64,000 bases of DNA from Escherichia phage SKA64. This document shows, piece by piece, positions 5,508-5,698 of this stretch. How positions within the stretch are numbered: the stretch's first letter is position 1; the number at the start of each line of letters is the position of its first letter. Location: the sequence record OM362897.1. One strand, written 5' to 3'. Position numbers and translations under genes: made by a program. The notes beneath the pieces were generated by a model, which searched no databases, was not told where the DNA came from, and worked only from the letters and a program-made list of their open reading frames with translations.

Positions 5508-5698
5508 GTGGTAACAGAGACGCTGACGATTGTAGAGAACCGCTACATTCTCTAAGACCAAGCCCAACTTTCAGCGTAAAAGTTCTTGAGCCGAGACTAT
5601 TCCTTTTCCTCTTTGGTAGCTAACCTCTGAAGAAGTAGTCTCTAACACTACCGCAGTGCAAGCCCCTCTTAACAAAAGTCAACGACCCTGTTACCACA
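5508..5698 (-). ncRNA. candidate structured leader RNA between promoter and first tRNA
   Basis: Perfect 10-bp inverted repeat (GTGGTAACAG at 5508-5517, CTGTTACCAC at 5688-5697) encloses about 170 nt with no ORF of 60 aa or more and no tRNA fold. Confidence 0.3.

Follow-up and report, generated by a model that had tools for sequence, protein, structure and literature searches.

The region that separates the promoter of a phage tRNA cluster from its first tRNA is a genuine structured RNA domain of the minus strand, neither coding nor tRNA. It lies in a stretch of 64,000 nucleotides of Escherichia phage SKA64 (OM362897.1), referred to here as the window. The preliminary description of this DNA, made from the sequence alone, had proposed a small RNA or a structural leader, and the fold and the covariation among relatives bear out a structured non-coding RNA between the promoter and tRNA-Met(CAU). 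Our best reading, to which we give about an even chance, is that of a genus-specific 5' transcribed spacer that would fold independently, be released, be stabilised by its ends and either be recognised by a partner or form a tertiary fold.

Genomic context of the leader

The window belongs to a Phapecoctavirus genome (phAPEC8-like, Stephanstirmvirinae, about 150 kb). Phages of this genus are E. coli phages that have been widely isolated, often with therapy in mind, and Escherichia phages of the genus are 98-99.5% identical to the window over the 3-kb region around the leader. For the comparisons, we used three diverged lineages: lineage A consists of the window and most isolates, lineage B, about 80% identical to lineage A, consists of phiWec179 and PsgM04F, and lineage C is a 153-kb IMG/VR contig (L037). 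On the minus strand, the window carries a cluster of 10-11 tRNAs (3579-5501), detected with ARAGORN and Rfam. The first two, assigned by ARAGORN, are tRNA-Met(CAU) at 5427-5501 and tRNA-Arg(UCU) at 5350-5424, and the Rfam tRNA model scored 64.5 and 66.3 bits on this pair (5350..5501). The leader shares its strand with ten tRNAs and occupies the interval from a promoter to tRNA-Met. The promoter, located by a consensus scan, is of the sigma-70 type (5711..5740, minus strand), with a -35 element TTGACA at 5740-5735, an 18-nt spacer, a TG at 5719-5718 and a -10 element TAGGAT at 5716-5711. Both hexamers and the TG are kept in the three lineages, and the promoter spacer diverges. From the position of this promoter, transcription would start near 5704, about 5 nt ahead of the closing helix, which agrees with the earlier proposal of a start at the 5' half of the inverted repeat. 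The leader RNA, a 5' external transcribed spacer of about 200 nt, would thus begin at the predicted start and reach the last base ahead of tRNA-Met (5502..5704, minus strand).

Separately, we observed that tRNA-Met(CAU) together with 6 nt upstream (window 5426-5507) shares 95-96% identity with tRNA-Met from many T-even-type phages (Straboviridae). This likeness suggests that tRNA genes may have been exchanged between unrelated phage families.

Fold of the minus-strand RNA and its closing stem

Structure prediction had been proposed as a check, and on the minus strand it gave a clear signal. The 199-nt RNA reached a minimum free energy (MFE) of -75.2 kcal/mol, compared with -52.7 +/- 4.2 kcal/mol for 200 dinucleotide shuffles (z = -5.3), and the RNA from 5704 to 5502 reached -76.8 kcal/mol (z -5.7). 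The opposite strand attained only -53.7 kcal/mol and was therefore 21 kcal/mol weaker. The consensus fold has 71 pairs, arranged as a closing stem round a four-way junction (P2-P5) with a sixth hairpin, P6, and its helices contain about ten G-U pairs. The several internal hairpins noticed in the preliminary description are thus present in the predicted fold.

The closing stem grows out of an inverted repeat that had been described as a perfect 10-bp helix. Its arms, GTGGTAACAG (5508-5517) and CTGTTACCAC (5688-5697), are indeed exact reverse complements, although the gap from the 10-bp arm to the tRNA 5' end (5501) is 6 nt rather than the 5 nt first reported. In the minus-strand RNA the helix grows to 14 bp, two G-U pairs included, and forms P1a, in which the 5' strand GUGUGGUAACAGGG (5686..5699), holding the arm originally noticed, pairs with the 3' strand CUCUGUUACCACAU (5506..5519), base 5699 facing 5506 and base 5686 facing 5519. 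After a one-base bulge, six more pairs make up P1b (5' strand CGUUGA, 5679..5684, with 3' strand UCAGCG, 5521..5526; 5684-5679 with 5526-5521), followed by the four weaker pairs of P1c. P1a, P1b and the weak P1c constitute the closing stem, and the junction strand CUUUUGUUAAGA comes next. At the other end, the extended helix leaves four unpaired nucleotides (UUAU, 5505-5502) as a linker that joins the leader to the tRNA.

The repeat is therefore exact and extends further than described, but taken by itself it offers the weakest evidence, since such repeats are frequent by chance and its sequence is invariant. Perfect 10-mer inverted repeats at 100-300 nt spacing occur 28 times in the window, against a shuffle mean of 18.5 and a shuffle maximum of 31, and the 10-bp repeat alone is therefore not unusual. 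Among 12 distinct sequences, P1a shows one change at each of two pairs. As each of these changes breaks its pair, there is no covariation for or against P1a. In P1b, one pair alternates between U-G and U-A and another between G-C and G-U, and between lineages A and B the two segments differ at one of about 41 positions (U-G to U-A). The case for the closing stem is thus one of thermodynamics and conservation only, with covariation neither supporting nor contradicting it. A disrupted P1a pair was seen in two members of the sequence set only, PsgM04F and phAPEC8_ev052. In the latter, the leader has two pair-breaking changes, one in P1a (C to G) and one in P2 (G to U).

Covariation in the inner helices

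Covariation in related genomes was a further check that had been put forward, and here the inner helices gave a positive answer. We aligned 12 distinct sequences, including eight near-identical lineage-A variants, by fitting them to a covariance model, which scored 205-238 bits in 13 loci. Standard pairs make up 97.4% of the pair cells across the 71-pair consensus. At ten pairs both sides have changed (34 cells) and the pairing persists, against 0-2 such pairs in slid controls in which the 3' partners were shifted by 1-3 columns, and the observed covariation score was reached by no shuffle; this alignment, being fitted to the model, is biased towards structure, and the counts rest on few events as there are only three independent lineages. 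An independent MAFFT alignment of three sequences analysed with RNAalifold reproduced this fold and showed 9 compensatory pairs. Substitutions between lineages A and B hit 17 pairs, of which 15 still pair, 9 by double change. Paired and unpaired positions diverged at about equal rate between these lineages (28/142 and 14/58, respectively). Covariation is seen in P2, P3 and P6, in two segments of P4 and in the upper part of P5. It is silent on the P4 tip and the base of P5, neither of which varies.

P2 (5662..5666 paired with 5554..5558, 5666 facing 5554 and 5662 facing 5558) closes the inner four-way junction, which holds three hairpins. One of its 5 pairs takes three standard types (G-U, C-G and U-A) and three have one-sided changes that keep the pairing. 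P3 (5645..5659), a 5-bp hairpin with a variable loop, has two compensatory double-change pairs and occurs as CACU/AGUG, CAUC/GAUG and CACA/UGUG. P4 (5593..5642) is a long hairpin with internal loops and two compensatory pairs in its stems, and its tip, GGUUAGCUACC (5625-5615), is unchanged in all lineages. P5 (5561..5592), built of 6 bp, a 3-nt AGA bulge and 7 bp, is nearly invariant: apart from a single compensatory U-A/A-U pair, all positions are identical across lineages. Finally, P6 (5534..5553) branches from the outer junction and has four double-change pairs, and its loop retains GUAGC in all lineages while the neighbouring positions change.

These substitutions also bear on the coding potential of the region. 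As had been stated beforehand, there is no open reading frame of at least 60 aa, the longest being 34-37 aa with TTG starts. That the leader is a small protein gene, namely the 34-codon TTG frame at 5675-5571, is hardly credible to us. Lineages A and B both keep the frame open, and a few records annotate a hypothetical protein there, but it has no ATG start, 13 of its 34 residues differ between the lineages, many non-conservatively, and the substitutions track RNA pairing instead. An RNA is annotated at the leader site in none of the 70 deposited genomes, and a few of them call the spurious 34-aa protein. The leader region should be masked from protein annotation.

Conserved sequence elements and a possible loop-loop contact

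Compared in 60-nt windows, lineages A and B are 70-88% identical in the leader, 50-73% in the upstream 82-aa gene and 93-100% in the tRNAs. The divergence of the leader is uneven, with 6 changed columns out of 57 in the P1 region versus 35 out of 139 elsewhere (Fisher p = 0.02). The sequences of P1, P5 and the P4 tip vary little or not at all, while neighbouring helices change by 20%. Because they hardly vary, these three elements are constrained in sequence and not in pairing alone. Such conservation beyond the needs of pairing points to a specific protein or RNA partner or to a defined tertiary fold, and a sequence-specific partner for the leader probably exists.

As for a tertiary fold, the P6 loop sequence GUAGC is, in each of the three lineages, the complement of GCUAC at the P4 tip. 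The P4-P6 duplex is the sole inter-loop duplex that is favourable in all three (-7.1, -15.0 and -14.5 kcal/mol), so a loop-loop contact is possible, as is dimerisation via the palindrome UAGCUA in the P4 loop, both of which we infer purely from predicted pairing.

The conserved elements and the position of the leader could also fit a promoter-proximal RNA that acts on the polymerase like the put RNAs of HK022, or that otherwise controls transcriptional read-through into the cluster and the genes past it, given that the domain begins within a few nt of the predicted start of an early-type promoter. We consider this quite improbable. The put RNAs are about 70 nt long and consist of two stem-loops, whereas the leader is a 200-nt multi-junction fold unlike two simple stem-loops. 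Moreover, we saw no convincing intrinsic terminator between the leader and the tRNAs, and the tRNA cluster has internal promoters of its own.

Distribution of the leader

To describe the distribution of the leader, we used distant blastn searches, pattern scans and covariance models. In a phage collection, blastn found one copy in each of 70 phage records, all Phapecoctavirus whatever the host name, and its orientation was identical in all 70. The upstream protein was found at an identity of at least 60% in 70 records, the same number as for the leader, and below 60% in 57 further records (Justusliebigvirus and others), which had no leader match. In Justusliebigvirus JohannJBalmer, tRNA(CAU) directly follows the homologous upstream gene with no leader in between, and in Citrobacter phage Tr1 the promoter abuts tRNA-Met, again with no leader. 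A covariance model search of the tRNA loci of JohannJBalmer, Tr1, Dhakavirus vB_EcoM_005 and T4 gave no match. Since the leader is absent at the same site in sister genera, it seems to have been gained by the Phapecoctavirus lineage, at the exact boundary of promoter and tRNA. Within the cluster itself, two further promoters (5153-5124 and 4186-4157) abut their tRNAs without a leader. Judging from these leaderless promoters and from the sister genera, a leader is clearly not needed for tRNA expression in general.

Outside the phage collection, a distant blastn search of 5,426 E. coli genomes found nothing similar to the leader. A pattern scan of IMG/VR with GGTTAGCTACCAAAGA gave 21 loci, all chance matches by nhmmer, and scans with GTAACAGGGTCGTTGAC and GGCTCAAGAACNTTTACGC gave one true new lineage (L037), the rest being chance, so the three pattern scans together yielded one IMG/VR contig that carries the leader. 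A metagenome pattern scan returned two contigs, both from known lineages, and a scan of GTDB genomes returned 15 chance matches, none of which was confirmed by the covariance model. A catalogue of viral structured RNAs has been built from IMG/VR (PMC10690425). In the literature on transcriptomes, transcription or non-coding RNAs of these phages, we found nothing relevant.

The absence at the same site in sister genera resembles an insertion, and perfect 10-bp inverted repeats flank about 170 bp, as would be seen for a miniature transposable or invertible DNA segment with terminal inverted repeats and no RNA function. Several results speak against such a DNA-level element, which we regard as very improbable. 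There is a single copy per genome, with no second copy in the window and none in the 5,426 E. coli genomes, no target-site duplication was seen in the flanks, and all 70 records share one orientation. In addition, the helices include roughly ten G-U pairs, the fold favours one strand by 21 kcal/mol, and the compensatory changes preserve pairing in an RNA.

Two minor observations came from these records. The tRNA(CAU)-like gene of JohannJBalmer (3747-3822 of the locus examined), which follows the homologue of the 82-aa protein, is unannotated in its record. Furthermore, three phages with non-Escherichia host labels, Campylobacter phage B15 (MG065650), Pseudomonas phage PsgM04F (OR584014) and Klebsiella phage ZCKP1 (MH252123), have the leader and the tRNA cluster of Phapecoctavirus (80-100% identity), and their host labels may differ from the true propagation host.

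Comparison with known RNA families

The leader matches no described RNA family and is an orphan structure of a known general kind, found in one genus. None of the 4227 models of Rfam 15 matched 5502-5704 at the gathering threshold, nor at E up to 10 with permissive filters. The absence of a tRNA fold, already noted in the preliminary description, was confirmed with ARAGORN, which found no tRNA in the leader at default or relaxed threshold, and with the Rfam tRNA and tRNA-Sec models, which gave no match on it; the T-loop motif GTTCRANNC was not seen in its sequence either. 6S RNA is made of a closing stem, a large single-stranded central bubble and a terminal stem. We obtained no Rfam 6S match, and the consensus fold has two multi-helix junctions, not a central bubble. 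Y RNA and YrlA combine a terminal stem with a tRNA-like module that has a T-arm, and their lone signal (22.8 bits, for a gathering score of 69) fell on genuine tRNAs at 3752-3871, off the leader.

The analogy drawn earlier with the small RNAs of the T4 tRNA region holds only loosely. The T4 species 1 and species 2 stable RNAs (rnaC and rnaD) are likewise non-tRNA RNAs in a phage tRNA cluster. According to the T4 annotation, they lie next to tRNA-Arg(UCU) and are presumably excised from tRNA precursors. However, these RNAs of 119 and 139 nt come after tRNA-Arg, at the 3' end of the cluster, whereas the leader has a 5' position and a multi-junction fold, and rnaC folds with a tRNA-like T-arm, from which the leader fold differs. 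Run on the T4 tRNA region with filters off, the leader covariance model gave noise of at most 9.3 bits, the best of it not on rnaC or rnaD. With no homology and a different position and fold, the likeness to T4 is one of context and not of family membership. To our knowledge, the function of rnaC and rnaD is still unknown after fifty years.

Other systems are comparable in part. In function, the closest precedents would be RNAs that derive from spacers of E. coli tRNA operons. E. coli 3'ETS-leuZ, a short 3' trailer that sponges small RNAs by base pairing, is also a transcribed spacer of a tRNA operon, and by analogy the leader may survive processing as a functional RNA, although it is a large structured 5' spacer. 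Bacterial rRNA operons share with the leader a helix of about 20 bp formed from flanking sequences (here 14 bp, a bulge, 6 bp and four weaker pairs) in a polycistronic precursor with tRNAs; these RNase III stalks enclose rRNA, whereas the leader stem encloses 170 nt that are not rRNA, and RNase III cleavage is putative here. GOLLD and ROOL, whose function is unknown, are RNAs of elaborate structure that often lie next to tRNA genes in phage genomes. Their size is three to four times that of the leader, and their Rfam models gave no match.

Several other candidates were considered and rejected. The P1 segment UGGUAAC faintly resembles the T-box motif UGGUACC, with no Rfam match for a T-box leader. 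A pseudoknot between the P5 loop ACGCUG and CAGCGU would require a segment that P1b already uses, and lineage B breaks the match. The AGA bulge of P5 lacks the tandem G-A pairs of a K-turn, and retron, guide-RNA and bridge-RNA readings were discarded as no reverse transcriptase, nuclease or recombinase gene is adjacent. A boxA-like sequence, CTCTTAACAA, occurs only on the strand opposite the leader (window 5663-5684, plus strand), one base short of the rrn boxA core CTCTTTAACAA. It is probably a coincidence because there is no plus-strand gene nearby.

Proposed origin and fate of the leader RNA

We propose the following sequence of events. The host RNA polymerase would start early in infection at the conserved TTGACA/extended -10 promoter, some 5 nt ahead of the domain. 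While being made, the RNA would fold, the 20-bp closing stem tying both ends together around the P2-P5 junction and P6. RNase P acts at tRNA 5' ends generally, and on this basis a cut is predicted at the 5' end of tRNA-Met (between 5502 and 5501), 4 nt past the stem, which would free the domain. Alternatively, it could be released by RNase III cleavage inside the long stem P1. What is freed would be a discrete RNA some 200 nt in length. Paired termini are a common design of stable bacterial RNAs, and with its short 5' overhang and 4-nt 3' tail this RNA would be attacked poorly by 3' exonucleases and by RNase E acting in its 5'-end-dependent mode. Whether free or still attached, the domain would, as its conservation suggests, meet a specific protein or RNA partner or adopt a tertiary fold such as one with the P4-P6 contact.

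More speculatively, and on balance unlikely, the leader may be a candidate for a new class of non-coding RNA that phages make early. Cut out of a tRNA precursor and resistant to nucleases, such an RNA would target a host factor in trans. It might, for instance, inhibit or serve as a decoy for a ribonuclease or an RNA-sensing or tRNA-targeting defence, maybe assembling via UAGCUA or P4-P6. If the leader proved stable and trans-acting, it would add a structurally complex member, beyond rnaC and rnaD, to the very few phage RNAs that come from tRNA precursors. A covariation-supported orphan RNA of 200 nt with an early-type promoter, whose expression is predicted, makes a concrete and cheap experimental target.

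Other self-closing spacers of the tRNA cluster

The leader is accompanied by other structured spacers on the minus strand. The one that follows tRNA-Arg (5158..5349), a tentative companion element, extends up to the next promoter (5153-5124) and has an MFE of -53.9 kcal/mol (z -4.4, or -4.3 on 100 shuffles). Its closing helix of 10+7 bp pairs GAACAUUUUA.AUGAAU with AUUCAU.UAAAAUGUUU, with one compensatory pair, and the element is followed by UUUUAAAAA and the next promoter. Its ends are conserved and its centre is variable, and 1-nt indels relative to phiWec179 argue against the small open reading frame annotated there in PsgM04F. As this spacer and the leader are both self-closing, the Met-Arg tRNA pair is flanked on each side by a self-closing RNA. 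Further along, the spacer at 4805-4934 has an 11-bp closing helix (z = -3.7), and the Gly-Gln spacer (3974-4071) is a long hairpin (z = -6.0) whose closing helix, about 24 bp in length, surrounds a pyrimidine-rich loop, and it is 100% identical in lineage B. The Gly-Gln spacer of JohannJBalmer (5777-5875 of its locus) has a closing helix of different sequence, read by eye from the alignment; in the RNAalifold consensus of the Gly-Gln spacers, several of these by-eye pairs are broken and there are only 2 compensatory pairs.

Since other spacers also pair their own ends, self-closure may be a general property of cluster spacers and not the sign of a special RNA. This bears on the main rival to our reading, a purely cis-acting spacer that folds on itself to spare the folding of the adjacent tRNAs, shields the triphosphate 5' end of the tRNA precursor, offers a short linker to RNase P or RNase E and is inert once cut. 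We consider it possible, if somewhat doubtful. It agrees with the self-closure of the three spacers at 5158-5349, 4805-4934 and 3974-4071 (z -3.7 to -6.0), with the closing helix of different sequence seen by eye in Justusliebigvirus and with the location of the leader directly at the predicted 5' end of the transcript. On the other hand, a simple hairpin would suffice for such a role, whereas here six helices covary, the sequences of P1, P5 and the P4 tip stay constant beside helices that change by 20%, and the other promoters of the cluster and the sister genera do without a leader. If the leader were only a self-folding spacer, it would still show how large phage tRNA clusters are built, with self-closing spacers between tRNAs.

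Some regions of the cluster resemble tRNAs. The short spacers at 4535-4624 and 3658-3735 (minus strand) contain T-arm-like hairpins (GCAGGUAUCGAAUCCUGC and GCUGGUUCGAAUCCAGC, respectively) and look like degenerate tRNAs. Two tRNA-like genes on the same strand, at 4720-4804 and 5029-5115, were missed by ARAGORN. One of them scores 39 bits with the Rfam tRNA model and the other 37.4 bits with the tRNA-Sec model (gathering score 47), and relatives annotate tRNA-Tyr, tRNA-Ser or a pseudo-tRNA at these positions.
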